A DNA stretch of 64,000 bases from positions 373,325 through 437,324 of the forward strand of contig JBAZJW010000001.1 of NCBI GenBank assembly GCA_041651055.1. The letters are read 5' to 3'. Of the stretch, positions 2,587-56,633 are shown one piece after another (positions within the stretch are counted from its first letter, which is position 1; each line of letters begins with the position of its first letter). The translations under genes and the position numbers were made by a program. Below the pieces are notes generated by a model. The model was not told the origin of the DNA. It saw nothing but the letters and a program-made list of their open reading frames with translations, and ran no database searches. This DNA is from Minisyncoccota bacterium (GTDB lineage: Bacteria; Patescibacteriota; Minisyncoccia; Phycocordibacterales; UBA5272).

Positions 2587-2952
2587 TTAGGACGTTCTTC
2601 GTTCTTCGTTAAATTTCTTAATAAATGCACTCAACATTTTCATAACATCTTCGAGTTTTAATGCAATCATATTAAAATCTTCATCAGCTATATACCCTAA
2701 TTTATGAGCCAACAAAAGTTGTGTTTCTACTTCTGCACCAGACCCATGTGAAATTTTTAAAAACTGAAGAAACTCCTTTTGCCCCCTTTTGCTTCCTTCA
2801 GAAATATTAGAGGGTATAGAAACTGCAGCCCTGCGAATCTGAGATGTTAAACCATATAATTCTTCTTTAGGAAAAGACTTAGTTGACTGATATATATCAA
2901 AACAAACATCAAAAGACTTTTTCCATACATCAAGATCTTTATACGAACTCAT
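2587..2952 (-). CDS. four-helix-bundle protein of the 23S rRNA intervening-sequence protein family
   Basis: 121 aa. DVWKKS...IPSNISEG...EFLQFLKISHGSGAEVETQLLLA matches the TIGR02436 / S23-ribosomal-like family. The gene is bracketed by inverted CGTTCTTCGTTAGG repeats, and its last 8 codons are encoded by the repeat. Confidence 0.7.
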   Translation of the reverse strand: MSSYKDLDVWKKSFDVCFDIYQSTKSFPKEELYGLTSQIRRAAVSIPSNISEGSKRGQKEFLQFLKISHGSGAEVETQLLLAHKLGYIADEDFNMIALKLEDVMKMLSAFIKKFNEERRTS

Positions 2953-3135
2953 GATAGCGTTAGTATATCCCCCTAACGAAGAACGACCTAACGAAGAACG
3001 GATTATCTACATTCCTCTAGTTCAAAAAATTGTTTTAGCTACGAGAAGCGACAATTTTTTGAAAGAAGGCGTACGCATAGTACGACGACTGCCAAAAATG
3101 CAGTCGCGACAAAGCAGATGAAGCAATTTTTTGAA

Positions 3136-3771
3136 CTAGAGTTCGTGGAAGAGAACAATTTCACCAAGCTTCCCATCAATATCCTTCTTCTTAATCGTAA
3201 GCTTCTCCACTGGTTCCACTTTTTCGGACCCCGCTTCTTTCAAAAAGACTGGAAGTGATTGTTCATCATAGTCCATCGGAATAATAAGCTTCGGTTCGAG
3301 TGCGACAGCGAGCTTCTGCGCGTCGTACGCATTAAGAAGGAATCCATCATGTCCAACTGGAACAAAAAGAAGATCTGTCTCATCGATGATTTCTTTGTGC
3401 TCGGAAGCGAGTGCTTGTGAGAGCGCTCCTAAGAACGTAATACGAATACCGTCTAAGGTAAGTACATAACTTGTATTCTGATATTCCTTTTCTTTTTTGC
3501 CGTCCATCAACTTGGTAGTCGTACCGAATCCTTTAATGAAAATATCCTTCACTTCATACTCTCCTGCACCACGAATAACGAAAGGAACTTTTTCTCCATG
3601 CTCTGTCTGTTCAGCGCCGTTGTAATCTGGGTGGTTCGTCGTAATGAGCGTAATATCCGCTCCATATTTGGCAACTTTCCCCTTCCCTTCTTTTGATACT
3701 GGGTTTATAGCCACGACCAAATCCCCGACTGTTAATTTGAAATGCTCTCGTCCGAAATAAGTGATAATCAT
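3136..3771 (-). CDS. MBL-fold metallo-hydrolase
   Basis: ITYFGREHFKL...PVSKEGK...HPDYNGAE...HDGF pattern typical of beta-lactamase-fold Zn hydrolases. The ORF track begins at 3813, but the likely start is MIITYFG at 3771. Confidence 0.55.
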   Translation of the reverse strand: MIITYFGREHFKLTVGDLVVAINPVSKEGKGKVAKYGADITLITTNHPDYNGAEQTEHGEKVPFVIRGAGEYEVKDIFIKGFGTTTKLMDGKKEKEYQNTSYVLTLDGIRITFLGALSQALASEHKEIIDETDLLFVPVGHDGFLLNAYDAQKLAVALEPKLIIPMDYDEQSLPVFLKEAGSEKVEPVEKLTIKKKDIDGKLGEIVLFHEL

Positions 3772-3791
3772 AGATCGCAGTCTACCAAAAT

Positions 3792-3826
3792 TAGTCAAAA
3801 GAAAAAAGCCCACTTGCGCGGGCTTT
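3792..3826 (-). terminator. intrinsic terminator for the 3852..4181 gene
   Basis: On the minus strand, AAAGCCCGCGCAAGTGGGCTTT hairpin followed by TTTTTTCTTTT. Confidence 0.7.
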
Positions 3827-3851
3827 ATTGAACACTGACGAGGTGCAGGTG

Positions 3852-4181
3852 TCAGTGTTTCGCAAAGCAGGATGTCACCTGCTTTGTAACCCGATAGGTC
3901 TCGCGACCATATCGGCCTCTCCGATCAACGGACAGTTTGACAGCCTTCCCTGTCGTTGCAACGCATTCCTGGTTGTTAGCGTGGTAGAAACGGACACCCT
4001 TGATGGTTGCATAGTTTGACTCGCAACCGTCTGAGGTGAAACCGTTAACCACACCACCCTTTTCCTCCACCCACAAACAAGCGTTAGTGAAGTGAAGATT
4101 TGCCGGAGCTTGGAAGTACCAGGCATTAGCACTCGATGCCGCAACAACGAGAACCATCACAAGTGAATTTTTCAGCTTCAT
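3852..4181 (-). CDS. secreted cysteine-rich small protein. Signal peptide MKLKNSLVMVLVVAASSANA; mature part ~88 aa with 4 Cys.
   Basis: Likely start at MKLKNS (4179-4181). Hydrophobic h-region ending in ANA-W. Lies in a ~55% GC island. No family recognised. Confidence 0.5.
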   Translation of the reverse strand: MKLKNSLVMVLVVAASSANAWYFQAPANLHFTNACLWVEEKGGVVNGFTSDGCESNYATIKGVRFYHANNQECVATTGKAVKLSVDRRGRYGRETYRVTKQVTSCFAKH

Positions 4182-4192
4182 GATAGCCCCCA

Positions 4193-4528
4193 TTAGCGAC
4201 GAGGTGTCGCAATGACCTCGTAGAAGCTCCCCGTCTCCGTCTTGCAACGAAAGACCTTGAAGAGCGACGCGTCGAGAGTGTTCACAACCTCAGTCACAGT
4301 GGAAGTGTATTTCCCACCACCGAGGTACAACGTATCTCCGACGGTGACACCAGGGAAATCGTTGATTTGTGCCGTGAGAACCCCCAAGCTATGCGCTTGG
4401 GTACTCGGATGGTAGGTCCGAGAGATCACGGCCGTCATACCTTTGGCGTGACGGTGTACTGGGTTTTTAACGATGCCCCTCGCATCGGGCAACACTTCCA
4501 GTGTTGCCATACGGTTACCGAAGACCAT
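4193..4528 (-). CDS. hypothetical protein in the GC-rich island
   Basis: 111-aa ORF with an AGGAG Shine-Dalgarno 7 nt upstream. Co-directional with, and 11 nt upstream of, the secreted protein gene. Confidence 0.45.
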   Translation of the reverse strand: MVFGNRMATLEVLPDARGIVKNPVHRHAKGMTAVISRTYHPSTQAHSLGVLTAQINDFPGVTVGDTLYLGGGKYTSTVTEVVNTLDASLFKVFRCKTETGSFYEVIATPRR

Positions 4529-4774
4529 TTTGGTGCTCCTAGTTGGTTATGGACCCAAGAAATTTGGGACCAAAAATAATATATCACAAATAAACTGAAA
4601 AGTCAAGTTTAAGATAGCATTGTTGGTCAAAAATACCTGGCGTACATTACGCCGGCGGCTTTTTTATTTGTATATCCATCTCTCAATAACTTGACATTTA
4701 CACTTTATATGATAGTGTAATAAACGAACATTACACGGGCGTGTGATGAATATATTGAAAAAAGGAAAAAGGAA

Positions 4775-5035
4775 ATGACAAAAACAACAGCATGGGAAAC
4801 CTTCACCTGGGCGATCGTGAGCGTCGCGATAGCCTACCTAGCTCTAGCTCTGGGAAGCACGATCACCCCAGACAAGGAACCTGTCCTCAAACTGATTGCA
4901 GGCCTCCTCGGATTGGCGGCCAGCGGAGCCGTCTGCTCCTACATCGTCAAGATGTTCGCCAGTGCCATTCGTGGTACACAGAAAAAGGAGCGCTCGAAAG
5001 ACGACCCCTCGATGCATGGCTGGGGGCCATATTGA
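4775..5035 (+). CDS. small membrane protein, 2 predicted TM helices
   Basis: 86 aa; WAIVSVAIAYLALALG and LIAGLLGLAASGAVCSYIV hydrophobic segments. GC-rich. Confidence 0.45.
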   Translation: MTKTTAWETFTWAIVSVAIAYLALALGSTITPDKEPVLKLIAGLLGLAASGAVCSYIVKMFASAIRGTQKKERSKDDPSMHGWGPY

Positions 5036-5061
5036 AACCAAAACCAACAAAGGAGACCGCC

Positions 5062-5262
5062 ATGAAGGCGTTCAAAGCTATTTTCCAGATCGGAATTAAC
5101 GGACTTTTTGTCTTTCTCTTCTACAAATGGGTGATAGAGCCTTTATGGCAATTCTCGCCACGGCTGACCGTTCTTTTTGCGCTTGCAACACTCTTCGTAT
5201 TCTTGCTTGCAACGAAAGAAGACGAAAGTCCTCACAACGACAACGCGCGGGCCGGACAGTAA
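5062..5262 (+). CDS. small membrane protein, 2 predicted TM helices
   Basis: 66 aa starting MKAFKAIFQIGINGLFVFLFY. Preceded by AACAAAGGAGACCGCC-ATG. Confidence 0.45.
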   Translation: MKAFKAIFQIGINGLFVFLFYKWVIEPLWQFSPRLTVLFALATLFVFLLATKEDESPHNDNARAGQ

Positions 5263-5295
5263 GCCTTTGTGCTTCGCCCCCCTATTAACCGCCTA

Positions 5296-5326
5296 GCGCA
5301 TCACGCCGGCGGTTTTCTTATTTTTG
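5296..5326 (+). terminator. putative terminator: short GC hairpin plus T-run
   Basis: CACGCCGGCGG followed by TTTTCTTATTTTTGT. A near-identical module lies at 4648-4676. Confidence 0.4.
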
Positions 5327-5566
5327 TATTACTTTGTATTCATACTGTTATTCAAATTGAATATTGAATATTTGATTCATTAAATATTTTTGACCCCTAA
5401 CCCCTAACTGTTGACTCCTAACTGTATTTAAAGTAGTATTACTCCCATCTATTAATAGATAATCGTTCTGGCGTAATCCCCGACTTGTGTGTAGTAAACA
5501 ACAAGACGGAGCCCAGACCGCAAGGTTAGCCGCCTTTCGTGGGCGGCCATTTTTTTACCCAACTAT

Positions 5567-6649
5567 ATGACAACAAGTACAGAACAAGTAGTGGCACCGT
5601 TTGCTGTAGGTGCAGTATTCTTTAAGGAAGAAGATATTGTAGAAGGTATCGTCGTTGCTATTGAAAAGGCAGCGCTCTACGTCGACCTCGGTACATCAGG
5701 AACAGGTATCATTTATGGTATCGAATTCATGAATGCGCGAGACGTTATCAAGCGTATTAGTATCGGAGATACTATTTCAGCGAAGATTGTTCTTCGTGAA
5801 AATCCTGAAGGCTACGTAGAACTTTCTCTCAAGGAAGCTCGTCAGGCTCTTATGTGGAATGACGCAGAACAGGCCATCAAAGAGAAGCGTGTTATGGATC
5901 TCGTTGTTAAGGATGCAAACAAGGGTGGACTTATTATCGAATGGCAAGGTATGGCAGGATTCCTTCCAGCGTCACAGCTTAAGGAAGAAAACTATCCTCG
6001 TATCGAAGATGGCGATAAGGACAAAATCCTACGCGAACTTAAGAAGCTTATCGGTAAGCGTGTATCAGTAAGTATTATTTCTGCAATTCCAAAGGAAGGT
6101 AAACTTATCTTCTCAGAAAAAGATGGAGGATCATCAAAGGAAACCAAGGAAGTTGCTATGGGCAATTACCTCGTTGGTGATGAAGTAGAAGGTACAGTAA
6201 CTGGTGTCGTCGAATTCGGTATCTTCGTTAAATTAGAAGACGGTGTCGAAGGTCTCGTTCACAAGAGTGAAATTGACTGGGGGCTTGTTGAAGACACTAA
6301 GGCTCACGCTCGTGTCGGAGAAAAAGTTCGTGCCAAGATCATCGAAGTGAAGGATGGAAAGATTTCACTTTCACTCAAAGCTCTCAAGGAAAATCCTTGG
6401 AAGGAAGCTGCAAAGAAGTACAAGAAAGGAGATGAGGTCGCTGGTGTTGTGATTAAGTTCAACAAGCACGGAGCACTCGTATCTATTGAAGAAGGTGTAG
6501 CAGGACTTGTACATGTATCTGATTTCGGAGACGAAGCAGCACTACGTGCAACACTTTCACTTGGAAAGAGTTACAAGTTTTCAATCACCCTCTTTGATGC
6601 AAATGAAGAGAGAATGACGCTTACATACGGAGAAGTGAAGAAGGCGTAA
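5567..6649 (+). CDS. rpsA: 30S ribosomal protein S1-like, four S1 domains
   Basis: 360 aa with repeated S1-fold segments (GxV.G.V....fG.FV....g.eGLvH.Se). Short S1 as seen in reduced genomes. Confidence 0.7.
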   Translation: MTTSTEQVVAPFAVGAVFFKEEDIVEGIVVAIEKAALYVDLGTSGTGIIYGIEFMNARDVIKRISIGDTISAKIVLRENPEGYVELSLKEARQALMWNDAEQAIKEKRVMDLVVKDANKGGLIIEWQGMAGFLPASQLKEENYPRIEDGDKDKILRELKKLIGKRVSVSIISAIPKEGKLIFSEKDGGSSKETKEVAMGNYLVGDEVEGTVTGVVEFGIFVKLEDGVEGLVHKSEIDWGLVEDTKAHARVGEKVRAKIIEVKDGKISLSLKALKENPWKEAAKKYKKGDEVAGVVIKFNKHGALVSIEEGVAGLVHVSDFGDEAALRATLSLGKSYKFSITLFDANEERMTLTYGEVKKA

Positions 6650-22688: not shown

Positions 22689-22910
22689 TTTGATCCATTG
22701 CGTACAATACACAGCAGGAGGAGTCGGTCACCACTAGGGTATTTTTGTTTTGCACTTCGTGTTCACAAAAATACTCCTAGTCCTGACCACGGGAAAAACC
22801 GACAAAATTATTTAATAGAGGAGTCGGTCACAAAATCAGCTCCTTTGTCGCAGATGATTTTCCGACCCGTATTCGACTCCTCTCGAAAGCCAAGCAGTTG
22901 GCTTTCTTAT

Positions 22911-22970
22911 CGCCCACTCATATACAAAAAGAAACATCGTATGATGTTTCTTTTTGTATATGAGTGGGCG
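22911..22970. terminator. 60-bp perfect palindrome; terminator hairpin immediately 3' of tRNA-Val
   Basis: CGCCCACTCATATACAAAAAGAAACATC-GTAT-GATGTTTCTTTTTGTATATGAGTGGGCG. One arm includes the tRNA acceptor 3' strand, and T-runs flank both sides. Confidence 0.6.
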
Positions 22971-23037
22971 ATAGAGGAGTCGAACCTCTGACATCCACAA
23001 CGTCAATGTGGCGCTCTACCAACTGAGCTAACCGCCC
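22965..23037 (-). tRNA. tRNA-Val (anticodon GAC)
   Basis: Reverse complement GGGCGGTTAGCTCAGTTGGTAGAGCGCCACATTGACGTTGTGGATGTCAGAGGTTCGACTCCTCTATCGCCCA folds as a cloverleaf with anticodon loop TTGACGT. Confidence 0.85.
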
Positions 23038-23118
23038 TTATTAATATCTCTACTACCTGCAGGTCTTGTACACGTTTTGATATATCTACCAACTGTATCG
23101 AAAGTTTACTAACTTTCG

Positions 23119-23202
23119 GCATCTTCGCGCAATTACACGTCTCGTGTCCTTCGTCTGGTGACTACGGACATCTTCGGTGCTCTTCGCACCTCGAGCTAAC
23201 CG
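23119..23202. repeat. 84-bp exact repeat, copy 1 (partner at 53875-53958)
   Basis: CATCTTCGCGCAATTACACGTCTCGTGTCCTTCGTCTGGTGACTACGGACATCTTCGGTGCTCTTCGCACCTCGAGCTAACCGC is identical at both loci. It ends in a tRNA 5'-end fragment (GCGGTTAGCTCGAG on the minus strand). Confidence 0.95.
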
Positions 23203-23341
23203 CCCCTCCATCATCTCTAACTGTCCTAATACACTAAACTATACCATACAAAAGGAGAGGTCCAAAAGTTGAAAGAAACGACTTTTTGTGGTAGTATATT
23301 TTTTACTTGGCCACCATCTTTTCTGATATGGACAAGAAGAC

Positions 23342-23413
23342 GGCCCCATCGTCTATCGGTTAGGACACCGGCTTTTCATGCCGGTAAGCGGAGTTCGACT
23401 CTCCGTGGGGTCA
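23342..23413 (+). tRNA. tRNA-Glu (anticodon TTC)
   Basis: GGCCCCATCGTCTATCGGTTAGGACACCGGCTTTTCATGCCGGTAAGCGGAGTTCGACTCTCCGTGGGGTCA; anticodon loop TTTTCAT; T-loop TTCGACT. Confidence 0.85.
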
Positions 23414-23695
23414 TGGTACAAAAATGAGCTAAGCAGAAATGCTTGGCCATTTTTGTTCATGACCCCAAGAAAGACAACTGCTTGTCTTTCGACGGAGAGT
23501 CGAAAGGGCACAGTTCAAGGAGCGAAGAGCACCGAAGATGTCCGTAGCCAGCAGGCGTAGGGCAAAAATAGATAGAGCAAGCGAAACCACGAGCGGCGGC
23601 CGGCGAACTTTTTGAGCGGCGGCGAGAAAAGATTTGTCGGAGACTCTCCGTGGGGTCACAATAAGCAAAGTTCATGGTAAAATAAGGTTATATAC

Positions 23696-51752: not shown

Positions 51753-52163
51753 TCATCTCGCCGCACGGCATTTACCCCGGCGAGGAGAGATACGGTGACC
51801 GTATCTATTCATGACATGTTCCGGCAGGATAAGTCCTTGCCTGTTCCACTCACAAACAACGAGCCATTTTTTTATCCCTCTTTCTGTTATCACAGAGAGG
51901 AGAGAATACCGGAGCCCATTCGGCCCATACAAAAAAGTCAGGCCTTGCTTCGGTACCTGGAGGTTGACCTGCCTTCCCGTTCCCGCATAAGAGCAGTGAA
52001 CCGGAAACAAGTCTTCTTTGTCGGCGCAACGAGCGATCGTCACAATCTTCGGCCCTTCGCAAAGCTTTGCAGTTGCAAAGGCTTCAAACAAGATAATTTT
52101 AAAGGTCCCGTTTTCGGACATGCCGTGTATTGATGGCACATGTTTCAGTTCATCCATACCCAT
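51753..52163 (-). CDS. hypothetical protein, GC-rich
   Basis: 136-aa ORF at ~50% GC. No family recognised. Confidence 0.35.
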   Translation of the reverse strand: MGMDELKHVPSIHGMSENGTFKIILFEAFATAKLCEGPKIVTIARCADKEDLFPVHCSYAGTGRQVNLQVPKQGLTFLYGPNGLRYSLLSVITERGIKKWLVVCEWNRQGLILPEHVMNRYGHRISPRRGKCRAAR

Positions 52164-52330: not shown

Positions 52331-53356
52331 CTACCCGATAAAGTTCACTTCCCTTTCCAGATGAATATCCGTTGCTTCGGAAACTTTTTCGGTAATTAAT
52401 GTAGCAAAAGCGTCAAGTTCCTCATACGTCGCATCGCCATAATTTACGATTACAAGCGGCTGTGCTGGCCATGTGCCGACATTTCCCACTGTCACCCCTT
52501 TCATCTGTGTCACGTGCTCTATAAGCCATGCTGAGGGCACCTTGTATCCGCCCTCTACATCGTGAATAGGCATATCACACCACTTCGCACGCATAGCATA
52601 TGCTTGAGACCTCGTTACAATAGGATTCTTAAAAAATGACCCCGCATTCGGATAGGTTTTGTAATCTGGAAGCTTCTCGGCACGTGTACGGAGAACAAGA
52701 TCTCGCACGTCGTTCGGTGTCAGGTCTTGTTTTAAAGTAAGTGTATCGAGTGGCTTGTAGGTAAGTTTTGGATTCTTGGTTTTGGAAAGTTTCATCGTTG
52801 CCTCTGTGATGATGTATCTCCCTTTTTCACGCTTGAATAGTGAATCGCGATATCCGAACTGACACGCATCATTTGAAAAAGAAACGAATTCCATGGTTGT
52901 GATGTCATATGCGCGGAGTGATACGAATACATCTTTAAGCTCCACTCCATACGCGCCGATATTTTGTACAGGAGAAGCACCGACTGTCCCTGGTACACCA
53001 GAAAGATTTTCTATTCCCCACAAATTAGCATCTACGGAAAACTTCACCACATCATCCCACTTCTCCCCTGCTCCGACAGTGAGAAGCACCTCGTCGGCTT
53101 CTGTTTTTTCTGTTGACTGCTGATTGCTGACTGTTGACTGTTTTTTAATTTCCATTTTTACAATCAACAGGTCCGGAAGTATATTTTTAAAAACAGTGTT
53201 CGTTCCTTCACCGAGAACATGAACGCGTAGATTGTTGGCCTTCGCATAATCACACGCTTCACCGAGAGAAACCTCCGAGGTCACGGTCACCATATCTGCC
53301 TCTCCACCAATGTGAAGCGATGTGTAATCTTTAAGAGAGACGTGCTGTATATTCAT
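52331..53356 (-). CDS. murB: UDP-N-acetylenolpyruvoylglucosamine reductase
   Basis: LKDYTSLHIGGEADMVT...VLGEGTNTVF FAD-binding PCMH N-terminus; C-terminal MurB domain. About 20 aa Q/S/T-rich insertion. Confidence 0.8.
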   Translation of the reverse strand: MNIQHVSLKDYTSLHIGGEADMVTVTSEVSLGEACDYAKANNLRVHVLGEGTNTVFKNILPDLLIVKMEIKKQSTVSNQQSTEKTEADEVLLTVGAGEKWDDVVKFSVDANLWGIENLSGVPGTVGASPVQNIGAYGVELKDVFVSLRAYDITTMEFVSFSNDACQFGYRDSLFKREKGRYIITEATMKLSKTKNPKLTYKPLDTLTLKQDLTPNDVRDLVLRTRAEKLPDYKTYPNAGSFFKNPIVTRSQAYAMRAKWCDMPIHDVEGGYKVPSAWLIEHVTQMKGVTVGNVGTWPAQPLVIVNYGDATYEELDAFATLITEKVSEATDIHLEREVNFIG

Positions 53357-53376
53357 ATCTCCATGATATCAAAACA

Positions 53377-53404
53377 AATACACTTCGTATACGAAGTGTA
53401 TTTG
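53377..53404. promoter_or_regulatory. 28-bp perfect palindrome 21 nt upstream of the murB start
   Basis: AAATACACTTCGTATACGAAGTGTATTT. Confidence 0.5.
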
Positions 53405-53607
53405 TTGGTGGTGCGCGGTCCTGGATTCTCCGACAAGTTTCGTCTCGTCGCCACTCAACGAACTCGCCGGCCGCCGCTCGTGGTTTTTCTTGCTAGAAAA
53501 ACATCACTGCGCCCTTTCGAATCCAGACGAAACATGTGCAGACATGTTTCTGACCGCGCACTAAAAAGAAAAACCCCTCCTCTGTCGAGGGGGATTTTTC
53601 TTTTTAG

Positions 53608-53680
53608 TGCGCGGTCCTGGATTCGAACCAGGGACCGCTCGAGTATCAGTCGAGTGCTCTACCAGCTGAGCTAACCGCGC
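53608..53680 (-). tRNA. tRNA-Ile (anticodon GAT)
   Basis: Reverse complement GCGCGGTTAGCTCAGCTGGTAGAGCACTCGACTGATACTCGAGCGGTCCCTGGTTCGAATCCAGGACCGCGCA; anticodon loop CTGATAC. A terminator hairpin (CCCCTC..GAGGGGG plus T-run) follows at 53560-53607. Confidence 0.85.
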
Positions 53681-53874
53681 TTTTTTATATTACTACCTAC
53701 CGACTTTGTGCACGTTTTAACAATCTACCACCTGTGTCAAAAGTTTGCTAACTTTTGACATCTTCGCGGCCGAGCCATCTCGAGCTAACCGCGCATATTT
53801 TATTTAACTACCCACACACTTCATACACGTTTGAACAATCTACCAGCTTGCGTCTTGTTCTTGCTGAACCAAGA

Positions 53875-53958
53875 CATCTTCGCGCAATTACACGTCTCGT
53901 GTCCTTCGTCTGGTGACTACGGACATCTTCGGTGCTCTTCGCACCTCGAGCTAACCGC
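53875..53958. repeat. 84-bp exact repeat, copy 2 (partner at 23119-23202)
   Basis: Identical sequence, in the same relative position upstream of a minus-strand tRNA. Confidence 0.95.
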
Positions 53959-54107
53959 ACTCTCCCAGATAAAACATAACTTTCAACGCACGTGTCACAA
54001 AATACTACCATAAAAATGACGAAGTAGAAAGCCCTTGGGCACGACTTGATTAATATGATATTTTGTTGTAGAAATAGACCACAGTTCATTCAACTAAGGA
54101 GACCACT

Positions 54108-54524
54108 ATGGCAACGGGATTCCAAAAATCAACGACCAAAACAAAGAGGGCTGCAACCGCAATAACACAGCAAAGCAATCAAACAATGGAGCACCACATT
54201 TGGTGCATACATACGGAGGACGATATAACCCAAAACGAAATCACTGTCTATTTCTCAAACAAAGGAGAGTCCGGCTTTAGCAAGACAAGAATTTTCTACA
54301 ACTGCAAAGAGCTTCATGTGTTCATGGTTTCATTTGCATTTGTCATGCACTTAAACAAAAATGAAGCTCAGAGGCCATACAAATTCACAGCCTATCATAA
54401 AGAAAGCAAAGGGAGACCTTGGGCGTTATGGAAAGGCGGAGAGAAGACAGTGCCGAAACAACTCAGAAAGGTTACACACCTCATCTTCGGCAAAGGTTCT
54501 CCTCTCAAAACAAAAAATGGATAG
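54108..54524 (+). CDS. hypothetical protein
   Basis: 138 aa. Strong SD CTAAGGAGACCACT-ATG. Sits between the 16S and tRNA-Ile genes on the opposite strand. Confidence 0.45.
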   Translation: MATGFQKSTTKTKRAATAITQQSNQTMEHHIWCIHTEDDITQNEITVYFSNKGESGFSKTRIFYNCKELHVFMVSFAFVMHLNKNEAQRPYKFTAYHKESKGRPWALWKGGEKTVPKQLRKVTHLIFGKGSPLKTKNG

Positions 54525-54799
54525 GCAAGAACGGAGAAAGCCGGATCGCAATGACGCGTCCGGCTTTTATATTAGTTTACACTAATACATATCGCAAGTA
54601 TTCAAACTATGAGGGTTCATAATTAAGATACTTCTGATATCTATTAAGGAAAACATCTTTCTACACAAAGACAAGGGTAGGCCACGTTTTTTGTAGTGAT
54701 TGTTTTATACATTACTAACATTGTGCTTTCTATTGATCTTTCTTTTGTCACACTCTAGCGCTTGCGCGACTTTTGTTACATTTCGTAGTAACACGAACT

Positions 54800-56633
<1,834 letters not shown>

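Follow-up and report, generated by a model that had tools for sequence, protein, structure and literature searches.

A lineage-specific family of small structured cassettes, matched to the adjacent gene, on the flanks of tRNA genes in Paceibacteria

Why would an intact tRNA gene be surrounded on both sides by fragments of itself? The question is posed by the tRNA-Ile(GAT) gene in a 64 kb stretch of DNA (contig JBAZJW010000001.1; 'the window' hereafter means the whole of this stretch) from a Candidate Phyla Radiation (CPR) bacterium of the Paceibacteria. An initial annotation had described units starting with the 5′ end of the tRNA upstream of the gene, and a copy of its 3′ end, likened to a phage attachment (att) site, downstream. 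The observation as a whole is real and statistically unambiguous, with minor corrections to the unit lengths, the repeat length and one motif consensus, and the feature is both more general and more unusual than had been stated. The tRNA-Ile locus is one of a lineage-specific family of small non-coding cassettes on both flanks of tRNA genes in Paceibacteria, recognizable by their anatomy, their fold and its covariation, their exclusive association with tRNA genes, the match between their arms and the neighbouring tRNA, their layering, and insertion and replacement polymorphism between relatives.

The tRNA-Ile gene itself (53607–53680, minus strand; ARAGORN; Rfam tRNA, 72.5 bits) is intact and colinear, with the CCA unencoded. 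Its 3′ end, GAATCCAGGACCGCGCAC (18 nt, tRNA nt 57–74), occurs at 53607–53624 and again at 53411–53428, 196 nt from start to start (repeat family D3). The initial annotation put the copy about 180 bp from the gene, and 178 nt lie between the two; the repeat had been read as the last 19 nt plus CCA, of which the repeat stands at 18 nt, and the CCA is present here without being general. Immediately downstream of the gene lies T1 (53552–53616), a palindrome with 26 bp arms (pair I1, 96% complementary) that begins inside the tRNA, at nt 65–74, and holds a predicted intrinsic terminator, bidirectional, in the form of a G+C-rich stem-loop (stem 53574–53592) with U/A tracts. The terminator scan predicted sites on both strands here (53574–53593) and at 23428–23447, and found five sites in all against 0.8 expected.

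T1 runs into a 151 nt cassette of type M4 (53411–53561, minus strand), delimited by folding, RNAalifold and covariance model R1 (167 bits). It consists of an inverted copy of tRNA nt 74–65 (53561–53552), a variable stem with a CUGC loop termed HP2 (53551–53527), an inverted copy of nt 64–54 (53526–53516), a conserved core (53515–53429) and the direct copy of nt 57–74 (53428–53411), so that its arms read GTGCGCGGTC / CTGGATTCGAA / GAATCCAGGACCGCGCAC. The minimum free energy is −73.9 kcal/mol (z = −6.4 against shuffled sequence). The stretch beyond the distal copy (53373–53410, minus strand) opens with C-A-CCA, which reads CCACCA together with the final C of the copy (53411), and continues with T2, a perfect 17 bp hairpin (53373–53406; pair I3, 100% complementary) with a U-run just upstream of murB. 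From its sequence, T2 is a predicted second terminator, which would place the cassette between the tRNA's own terminator and T2. The 178 nt between the direct repeats contain no gene, since the sole overlapping open reading frame (ORF; 53312–53674, plus strand, 120 aa) also crosses the tRNA gene, and we found neither an integrase gene nor a cargo remnant in that interval.

Besides tRNA-Ile, the window holds just tRNA-Val(GAC) (22964–23037, minus strand; ARAGORN and Rfam tRNA) and tRNA-Glu(UUC) (23342–23413, plus strand; ARAGORN), divergently oriented, and the same order of parts lies downstream of all three genes. T1, a near-perfect palindrome with a predicted intrinsic terminator that always reaches exactly to tRNA nt 65, comes first; the reverse complement of nt 74–65 follows at about +45, then HP2 as an 8–9 bp hairpin with a CUGC-type loop, the reverse complement of nt 64–54 at about +80, the conserved core, and a direct copy starting at nt 56/57. 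The 3′ flank of tRNA-Val (22718–22973, minus strand) comprises T1 (22908–22973), a type M2 cassette (R1 match 22808–22917) and a truncated M3 remnant bearing a second direct copy of the T-arm 3′ strand. That of tRNA-Glu (23414–23659, plus strand) comprises T1 (terminator stem 23428–23447) and a type M4 cassette (23458–23659) into which a small hairpin element, S1, is inserted (23522–23547); its arms, TGACCCCA / ACGGAGAGTCGAA / GACTCTCCGTGGGGTCA, match tRNA-Glu, and it too folds beyond shuffled sequence (z = −6.0). An origin of the arms as copies of the tRNA 5′ strands was considered and ruled out, as they are a true complement of the 3′ strand: tRNA-Glu has a G2-U71 pair where the cassette has A, and T-loop nt 59–60 are complemented as well. 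Where the 3′ end of tRNA-Glu is repeated distally, a promoter-like GTCACA-17-TAAAAT with TG (23655–23683, plus strand) overlaps this direct copy; it is predicted to serve the downstream gene with a lycopene-cyclase domain.

As a class, the 3′ cassettes are 110–220 nt long and fold into a multi-helix junction. The two closing helices are formed by the inverted copy of the last ~20 nt of the tRNA, split at nt 64/65 by HP2, pairing with the direct copy from nt 56/57 to the gene end. The result is not a tRNA-like structure: a core of about 90 nt stands in place of the T-loop, and nt 73–74 are paired to the inverted copy. For five M4 cassettes RNAalifold predicted 50 pairs, 29 of them compensatory, with one core pair switching from G:C to U:A. 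Covariance model R1, built from these five, gave exactly three matches in the window, one after each tRNA and all on the tRNA-sense strand, with none elsewhere; at other Paceibacteria loci it also recovers types M2 and M3. Among 14 distinct sequences, in an alignment fitted to the model and hence favouring structure, 93.8% of cells pair, 43 of the 50 pairs show double changes, none of 500 shuffles did as well and slid partners reached 39–49%. Since two G-U pairs hardly vary on the tRNA-sense strand, the fold belongs to that strand; this points to RNA as the folded form that counts, with single-stranded DNA the less probable one.

The cores fall into types, M2 (..GAATAGGGGTCGCGAA-hairpin-TTGTGACC), M4 (..GAA(A/T)GG(G/T)CGCAGTGATG-hairpin-CACGAG(C/A)GGCGGCCGGCGA-hairpin-TTGTCGGA), M3 and an M5 variant, with a GCGA/UUGU helix containing two G-U pairs and UAGCAA-loop hairpins in common. 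Copies of M4 beside different tRNAs and in different genomes are about 87% identical. In Rfam release 15 only tRNA and small subunit (SSU) rRNA reach the gathering score in the window, and permissive Rfam scans of window 53300–54900 and of positions 2900–6500 of a related locus (L088; the loci of relatives are cited by such numbers throughout) returned hairpin noise far under threshold. The tRNA introns of Patescibacteria described so far are group I introns in the anticodon loop (PMC13011429); there was no match to the group I model RF00028 at E ≤ 10, and tRNA-Ile is colinear and intact. A hammerhead-like reading of the three-way junction was rejected, as the junctions are without CUGAUGA/GAAA. 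Core patterns had no match in viral contigs, BLAST against phage and plasmid records found none to the cores, and the CPR/Patescibacteria literature searched held no description of such tRNA flanks. The cassettes thus match no described RNA or mobile-element family in the databases and literature searched, and appear to constitute an undescribed family.

The comparative genomics of the region shows the same architecture in about ten other genomes from different projects. A scan of genome contigs with a 19-mer of the core was swamped by chance matches in G+C-rich genomes and left only L020 and L027 (Paceibacteria) as relevant; a longer core pattern added four metagenomic loci, and protein-anchored look-ups added L084, L096, L099, L102 and L104. 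In a survey of 30 tRNAs at 11 loci, an inverted copy that covers 9 nt or more of the tRNA's own last 22 nt follows 21 of them and a direct copy follows 20, with the inverted-copy offsets clustering at +42–48 and +77–85. Matches to the ends of other tRNAs were mostly shorter, save between related tRNAs of common sequence. Homologous cassettes follow tRNAs for Ile, Val, Glu, Leu (three isoacceptors), Lys, Cys, Ser, Arg and Phe and a pseudo-tRNA-Gln; the direct repeat is 17–21 nt at the other tRNAs and always runs to the gene end. Cassette ends are copies of the local tRNA, different at each locus, and not the fixed terminal inverted repeats and constant short target duplication of a miniature inverted-repeat transposable element (MITE). 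Only one of four tRNAs in L027 has a cassette, and some tRNAs elsewhere are without any. The sense–antisense–sense arrangement is found on the 5′ side too, at tRNA-Leu of L027, tRNA-Cys of L088 and tRNA-Phe of L090. Junctions fall at TTCGAA, the T-loop palindrome, and at the terminator palindrome, and at tRNA-Ser of L089 and in L084 the direct copy runs 2–5 nt into the trailer.

Across all loci, most tRNA genes end N73-C74-A (for example GCAC followed by A) and not CCA; a full CCA is encoded by tRNA-His and tRNA-Arg of L027, tRNA-Lys of L102 and tRNA-Cys of L104. Cassettes occur at the CCA-encoding genes of L102 and L104 and are missing from those of L027. An encoded CCA as the sign of an RNA-derived copy was ruled out, the CCA being present at one of about seven full-length distal copies (L104 tRNA-Cys aside, where the gene itself encodes it). 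An origin of the retroviral type, from a primer-binding site or a tRNA-derived fragment, was ruled out as well: it is the trailer in the genome, not CCA, that the inverted copy matches, and some of the direct copies also extend into this trailer. Some 30–200 nt upstream of tRNA-Ser in L089 (7206–7293) lies an ORF with a C-terminal HNH-like motif (..CEVCGY..HHKN..LLCPNCHYEEH), which stops just before the tRNA-Ser promoter.

The 5′ flank of tRNA-Ile is composed of promoter-bearing units. GCGCGGTTAGCTC at 53794–53782 (minus strand), 114 nt upstream of the gene, equals tRNA-Ile nt 1–13 at 13 of 13 positions, and GTGCGGTTAGCTC at 53960–53948 (minus strand), 280 nt upstream, at 12 of 13; the initial annotation, which had each unit start with the first 13 nt, was exact for the proximal one. 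It was right that the units are in tandem, and the lengths it gave as about 123 and 169 bp are 114 and 166 nt from start to start (repeat family D2, three copies). After each fragment come, in this order, GAG, hairpins, GCGAAGATGTC, a further hairpin whose loop is of the UAGCAA type, ..TGGTAGAT and an AT-rich stretch. The proximal unit (53681–53794, minus strand; repeat families D1, with 80% identity across 51 nt, and D2, pair I7, alignment A2 and fold) runs GCGCGGTTAGCTC, GAG, a short hairpin closing on CCGCG, GAAGATG, an AAAAGU-UAGCAA-ACUUUU hairpin, TGGTAGAT (53730–53723) and a leader ending TAGTAATATAAAAAA. The distal unit (53795–53960, minus strand; D2, A2 and fold) runs GTGCGGTTAGCTC, GAG, the S1 hairpin cassette, AAUUGCGC, GAAGATG, a UCAGCAA-loop hairpin, TGGTAGAT (53845–53838) and a leader of about 45 nt. 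Two units, the proximal one of Ile and that of Val, agree with the reported consensus A(C/T)ACAG(G/T)TGGTAGAT; the distal Ile unit reads GCAAGCTGGTAGAT.

Alignment A2 compares the three stretches that precede each copy of tRNA-Ile nt 1–13 (U0, U1 and U2). Their promoter, leader and fragment parts align while filler lengths differ (units of 166 versus 114 nt), as in a head-to-tail tandem repeat. Upstream of the outermost fragment lies a canonical extended −10 promoter, TGGTAGTAT (54002–54010, minus strand), with which the two inner TGGTAGAT motifs line up, and the ~45 nt stretch that follows (..ACGTG..) is also homologous. Each unit therefore consists of promoter, leader, tRNA nt 1–13 and filler, and the array of two such units followed by promoter, leader and tRNA gene. 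The proposal that the tRNA promoter and 5′ region had been duplicated repeatedly is supported by this alignment. In the predicted fold, nt 1–8 of each extra copy pair with a complement resembling the acceptor 3′ strand (AAUUGCGC in the distal unit, CCGCG in the proximal one) just before GAAGAUG, so that the extra copies look like internally deleted mini-tRNAs in this model.

The same unit does precede tRNA-Val, as had been reported: an 84 nt block of the distal Ile unit (53875–53958, minus strand) is 100% identical to 23120–23203 upstream of tRNA-Val (E = 7e-42), and CGGTTAGCTCGAG occurs exactly three times in the window. The 5′ flank of tRNA-Val (23038–23250, minus strand) consists of a promoter, TGTATGGTATAGT (23250–23238), and one 168 nt unit (23205–23038) starting GGGCGGTTAGCTC, which equals tRNA-Val nt 1–13; its first three bases, GGG as against GCG or GTG, track tRNA-Val. 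The S1 sub-element (GCGAAGAGCACCGAAGATGTCCGTAG, ~48 nt) has three copies in the window, all in tRNA-sense orientation, two in 5′ units within the 84 nt identical block (53917–53942 and 23162–23187, minus strand) and one in the tRNA-Glu 3′ cassette (23522–23547, plus strand). A contig of an independent assembly, L098, ends beside S1. tRNA-Glu has no 5′ unit and a simple promoter, TTGAAA-17-TAGTAT with TG (23269–23297, plus strand), and tRNAs without 5′ units have a promoter of the same type (TGnTAGTAT/TATAGT) 10–30 nt upstream. The bases immediately 5′ of TGGTAGAT match the local tRNA D-loop (CAGTTGGTAGA for Val, AGCTGGTAGA for Ile), and TGGTAG, common to promoter and D-loop, is a plausible microhomology behind the 5′ duplication.

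Turnover of the cassettes is evident in a conserved four-tRNA cluster compared in four related genomes, in which a neighbouring protein is 79–96% identical to that of L088. There, tRNA-Leu(UAG) is identical (83/83) in L088, L099 and L104, with flanks of M2 plus M3, of M4, and of M2 with three 26 nt hairpin mini-insertions, respectively; the tRNA-Lys flank is M3, M4 or M2. The tRNA-Cys genes of L102 and L104 are identical apart from the encoded CCA, with one layer in L102 and two in L104, and the difference of ~140 nt begins at GGTTCGA in the T-loop and is bounded by tRNA-end repeats. The divergent tRNA-Lys/tRNA-Cys pair is inverted between L088 (4696–5068) and L099 (2468–2715), where the neighbouring DUF2238 protein is 96% identical; because the inversion breakpoints fall in oppositely oriented 3′ cassettes, recombination between these is suggested. 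The 26 nt mini-insertion (..TGATTAGTAAATCACGTCGGGAGACGC..) is present three times within one M2 cassette (L104 5930–6190) relative to the L088 orthologue, and again in the HP2 loop at tRNA-Cys (L104 ~960–1000); in appearance it is a very small hairpin element that inserts into the loops of hairpins.

L084 has a tRNA-Ile upstream of murB, as in the window, but with a different acceptor and T stem: its inner cassette (M2) matches its present tRNA-Ile, and the arms of its outer cassette (TGCGGTCCTGGATTCGAA ... GAATCCAGGACCGCGCAC) match the tRNA-Ile of the window at 18 of 18 nt, with a terminator and murB after it. L086 has a cassette (138 bits) beside a dead tRNA. In L096, an orphan cassette lies beside a decayed tRNA-Glu 3′ end (1990–2264), about 1.7 kb from a full-length pseudo-tRNA-Glu (60–270) which has three insertions, in the D region, the anticodon stem and the T-loop, and is directly upstream of an intact tRNA-Glu(CUC); the T-loop insertion is a core-like cassette. 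The cassettes are dispensable, because decaying or orphan copies lie beside dead tRNAs and other tRNAs, including most in L027, have none.

What, then, are these cassettes? We favour, with about an even chance of being right, selfish, non-autonomous, duplicative cassettes that regenerate the tRNA end, because the cassettes are rapidly replaced, layered, nested with mini-hairpins, prone to decay and dispensable. As to how they insert, whether a trans-acting factor takes part, whether RNA or single-stranded DNA is the relevant folded form and how the arms are templated, we infer a course of events. On the 3′ side, cassettes would enter, or be copied, at the T-loop; on the 5′ side, the site of entry or copying would follow nt 13. 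The stretch from the entry point to the gene end would be duplicated in the process, so that an intact tRNA gene with promoter and terminator is always regenerated; older gene ends would be displaced outwards as fragments, and layers would build up. Cores may be exchanged through recombination between loci. The tRNA-matched arms would be copied from the local gene, probably through replication template switching or gene conversion directed by hairpins; the junctions coincide with the two palindromes where this would happen, TTCGAA in the T-loop and that of the terminator. The position of the canonical promoter beside the outermost 5′ fragment and of the terminator beside the outermost 3′ fragment is consistent with this scheme, as are the small repeats nested in the flanks (S1 three times) and the breaking of independent assemblies at them.

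Several points weigh against the selfish reading. We could link neither a transposase nor an integrase nor a reverse transcriptase to the cassettes, and we know of no free or circular cassette form. The conservation of the cores, the compensatory stems and the near-invariant G-U pairs are explained by purifying selection on a functional RNA no less well than by mobility. Nearly every tRNA in several genomes retains some cassette despite changes of type, and there could be a host function that any type serves. Some arms follow recent changes in the tRNA, as in the inverted acceptor arm (X′acc) of tRNA-Lys in L099 and the tRNA-Cys 5′ fragment of L102 compared with L088, which is unlike a passive relic, while some outer copies retain the old sequence. 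Moreover, unequal recombination among repeats can also yield indels between relatives without true transposition.

The main rival, which we consider possible though probably not correct, sees the 3′ cassette as a structured RNA with a function within the tRNA transcription unit: transcription would read through T1, produce the cassette RNA and stop at T2. For the inverted arms there would be two alternative partners, either the 3′ half of the tRNA itself, in which case the T1 hairpin is lengthened into the acceptor strand, or the distal direct copy. Such an RNA might handle read-through precursors by presenting a substrate to RNase III, RNase P or RNase Z, by switching between folds or by acting as a decoy that draws off tRNA-binding enzymes; upstream of the gene, the 5′ units would amount to stacked promoters and a structured leader. 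The strand-specific, strongly covarying fold speaks for such a role, as do the G:C to U:A switch and nearly invariant G-U pairs in the core, and a core conserved beyond neutral expectation across genomes whose proteins are ~55–60% identical. So do the constant spacing from the tRNA, the reach of T1 to nt 65 in the acceptor strand, the placing of T2 after the cassette, a junction that mimics coaxial acceptor and T helices with a side arm at nt 64/65, and the cassette retained beside a dead tRNA in L086. Against this, T1 is a good predicted terminator upstream of the cassette, so that expression would need read-through; the cassette is dispensable for many tRNAs and in some genomes; its type, number and order vary at identical tRNAs of close relatives; arrays and truncated copies are common (L088 tRNA-Leu(UAA), tRNA-Val of the window); and with the discriminator base and nt 74 paired, no free NCCA is left for tRNA enzymes. 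The selfish and functional readings are not mutually exclusive. A more speculative reading, to which we attach a rather low probability, is an undescribed class of programmable structured RNA with a conserved core between arms templated by the last ~20 nt of the neighbouring tRNA, which would guide its own insertion into the T-loop by base pairing, as a tRNA-homing mini-element that encodes its guide, or act in trans on the cognate tRNA or on enzymes of the acceptor–T helix.

The three remaining explanations are each contradicted by specific results. A purely mutational by-product, in which fold-back template switching of the inverted-triplication type between terminator hairpin and T-loop, together with tandem duplication at TGGTAG, gave rise to the flanks with no element or function involved, is unlikely. 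It would account for triplicated tRNA ends whose middle copy is inverted, downstream of the genes as well as at the three 5′ flanks named above, and for the positions of the junctions, the direct copies that enter the trailer and the TGGTAG common to promoter and D-loop. However, homologous covarying cores and HP2 at unrelated tRNAs of different genomes are left unexplained by it, as is the fixed split of the inverted copy at nt 64/65; such events may account for the origin of the arms, but not for the cassette.

Very unlikely, in our view, is a reading in the sense of the att-like duplication of the initial annotation, by which the repeats would be the attL and attR of a decayed prophage or island whose tyrosine integrase used the tRNA-Ile T-loop. 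Mycobacteriophage Ms6 integrates in the T-loop of a tRNA-Ala gene (PMC1762012). A direct repeat that starts in the T-loop and reaches the 3′ end of the gene, or in some cases passes it by a few nt, is just the attB/attP identity block typical of such sites; the tandem layers, too, resemble accretion of elements. The att-like repeat itself stands, whereas the island between its copies does not: the 178 nt hold a structured cassette and no integrase or cargo, the 'island' has homologues after tRNAs of at least ten identities, which no single integrase specificity fits, it encloses the att segment in inverted orientation as well as a fold that covaries, and neither viral contigs nor phage records nor plasmids yielded the cores. 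The contigs of other short-read assemblies do end at these repeats and palindromes (L082, L085, L098), but a collapsed or chimeric multi-tRNA array, which the initial annotation had named as an outcome that would undo it, is extremely unlikely, given the same architecture at three window loci and in the other genomes, separate records 100% identical across cassettes (L020 = L088, L084 = L085), an independent Logan assembly (L098) that exactly reproduces the 3′ half of the window tRNA-Glu cassette, and covariation that misassembly cannot generate.

The wider neighbourhood of tRNA-Ile, in minus-strand order, is 16S rRNA (56640–54893; Rfam SSU rRNA), an opposite-strand ORF of 138 aa (54108–54524, plus strand), tRNA-Ile and murB (53356–52331). 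The 16S rRNA match is 1748 nt long against a model of 1533 positions, an insertion of ~200 nt; insertions in 16S rRNA are common in CPR. No 23S follows the 16S rRNA, and tRNA-Ile lies 1.2 kb downstream of it with the opposite-strand ORF between. This ORF and one of 136 aa downstream of murB (51753–52163, minus strand), both called by the gene caller of the assembly, match no Pfam family. Small ORFs beginning GAAGATG and a 93 aa ORF (53808–54089) were judged spurious. The vicinity of murB, to which the initial annotation had drawn attention, is incidental, because the closest relative (L083; MurB 93% identical) has no tRNA at this position; in the MurB synteny comparison a tRNA-Ile upstream of murB was missing from most relatives, and L084 alone was informative. 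Homology between L083 (1–330) and the window (53340–53400) breaks off exactly at the edge of the T2 hairpin, ~25 nt before murB starts, which marks a rearrangement breakpoint at the cassette edge; in L083 a protein gene occupies the position of the tRNA-Ile/16S block.

If this account is true, most tRNA genes in some ultra-small CPR genomes sit in a dynamic layer of structured, tRNA-templated cassettes that provide promoters and terminators, cause inversions and the replacement of flanks, and interrupt assemblies. For annotation, they explain tRNA fragments, pseudo-tRNAs and an estimated ~2% of a 0.6–0.8 Mb genome; for genome evolution, they represent an engine of rearrangement in otherwise streamlined CPR genomes. 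They would offer RNA biology a well-supported new fold whose arms track the neighbouring gene, and students of mechanism a natural system for how the sequence of a gene is templated into its flanks. Should the functional-RNA explanation be the true one, the cassettes would add a new, widespread component to the handling of pre-tRNAs in bacteria.

The nearest analogues of the cassettes appear to be att-type tRNA duplications and miniature palindromic repeats. They share with tyrosine-integrase att sites of the T-loop type (such as Ms6 at tRNA-Ala), and with integrase-less remnants such as cis-mobilizable elements, a direct repeat from T-loop to 3′ end, a regenerated tRNA, an old gene end displaced downstream, and layers resembling accretion. 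Unlike these, they are 110–220 nt long, have no integrase or cargo, occur with homologous cores at many tRNA identities, and add an inverted repeat copy, a covarying fold and a mirror-image 5′ arrangement. MITEs, repetitive extragenic palindromic (REP) sequences, bacterial interspersed mosaic elements (BIMEs) and the palindromes derived from IS200/IS605 are likewise small, non-coding, hairpin-forming, multicopy and nested, vary among close relatives, act as recombination substrates and break short-read assemblies. The cassettes, in contrast, are tied strictly to tRNA flanks in one orientation, their ends copy the neighbouring gene in place of fixed terminal inverted repeats, and they have no short fixed target duplication and no cognate transposase that we could identify.

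Among RNAs, the tRNA-like structures (the transfer-messenger RNA domain, viral tRNA-like structures, the Y-RNA YrlA and mascRNA) have coaxial acceptor and T stem helices with a side arm at the junction, as the cassettes do; the cassettes differ in having perfect duplexes of 10 and 8–11 bp without a T-loop or a single-stranded NCCA, a specificity that follows the adjacent tRNA, and no Rfam match. Split, permuted and multi-intron tRNA genes of Archaea and algae also combine tRNA fragments with complementary flanks and have insertions in the D- and T-loops (compare the pseudo-tRNA of L096), yet here every locus has an intact colinear tRNA, the fragments are without anticodon arms, the host is bacterial, and no bulge-helix-bulge motif was noticed, in an analysis not directed at one. 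Finally, the template-switch triplications of the duplication–triplication and inverted-duplication types (DUP-TRP/INV-DUP), and quasipalindrome correction, produce the same sense–antisense–sense order, short-palindrome junctions and perfect arms. Unlike such events, the arrangement in the cassettes is repeated at dozens of genes with its nucleotide positions unchanged, and what it encloses is in every case a homologous structured core.

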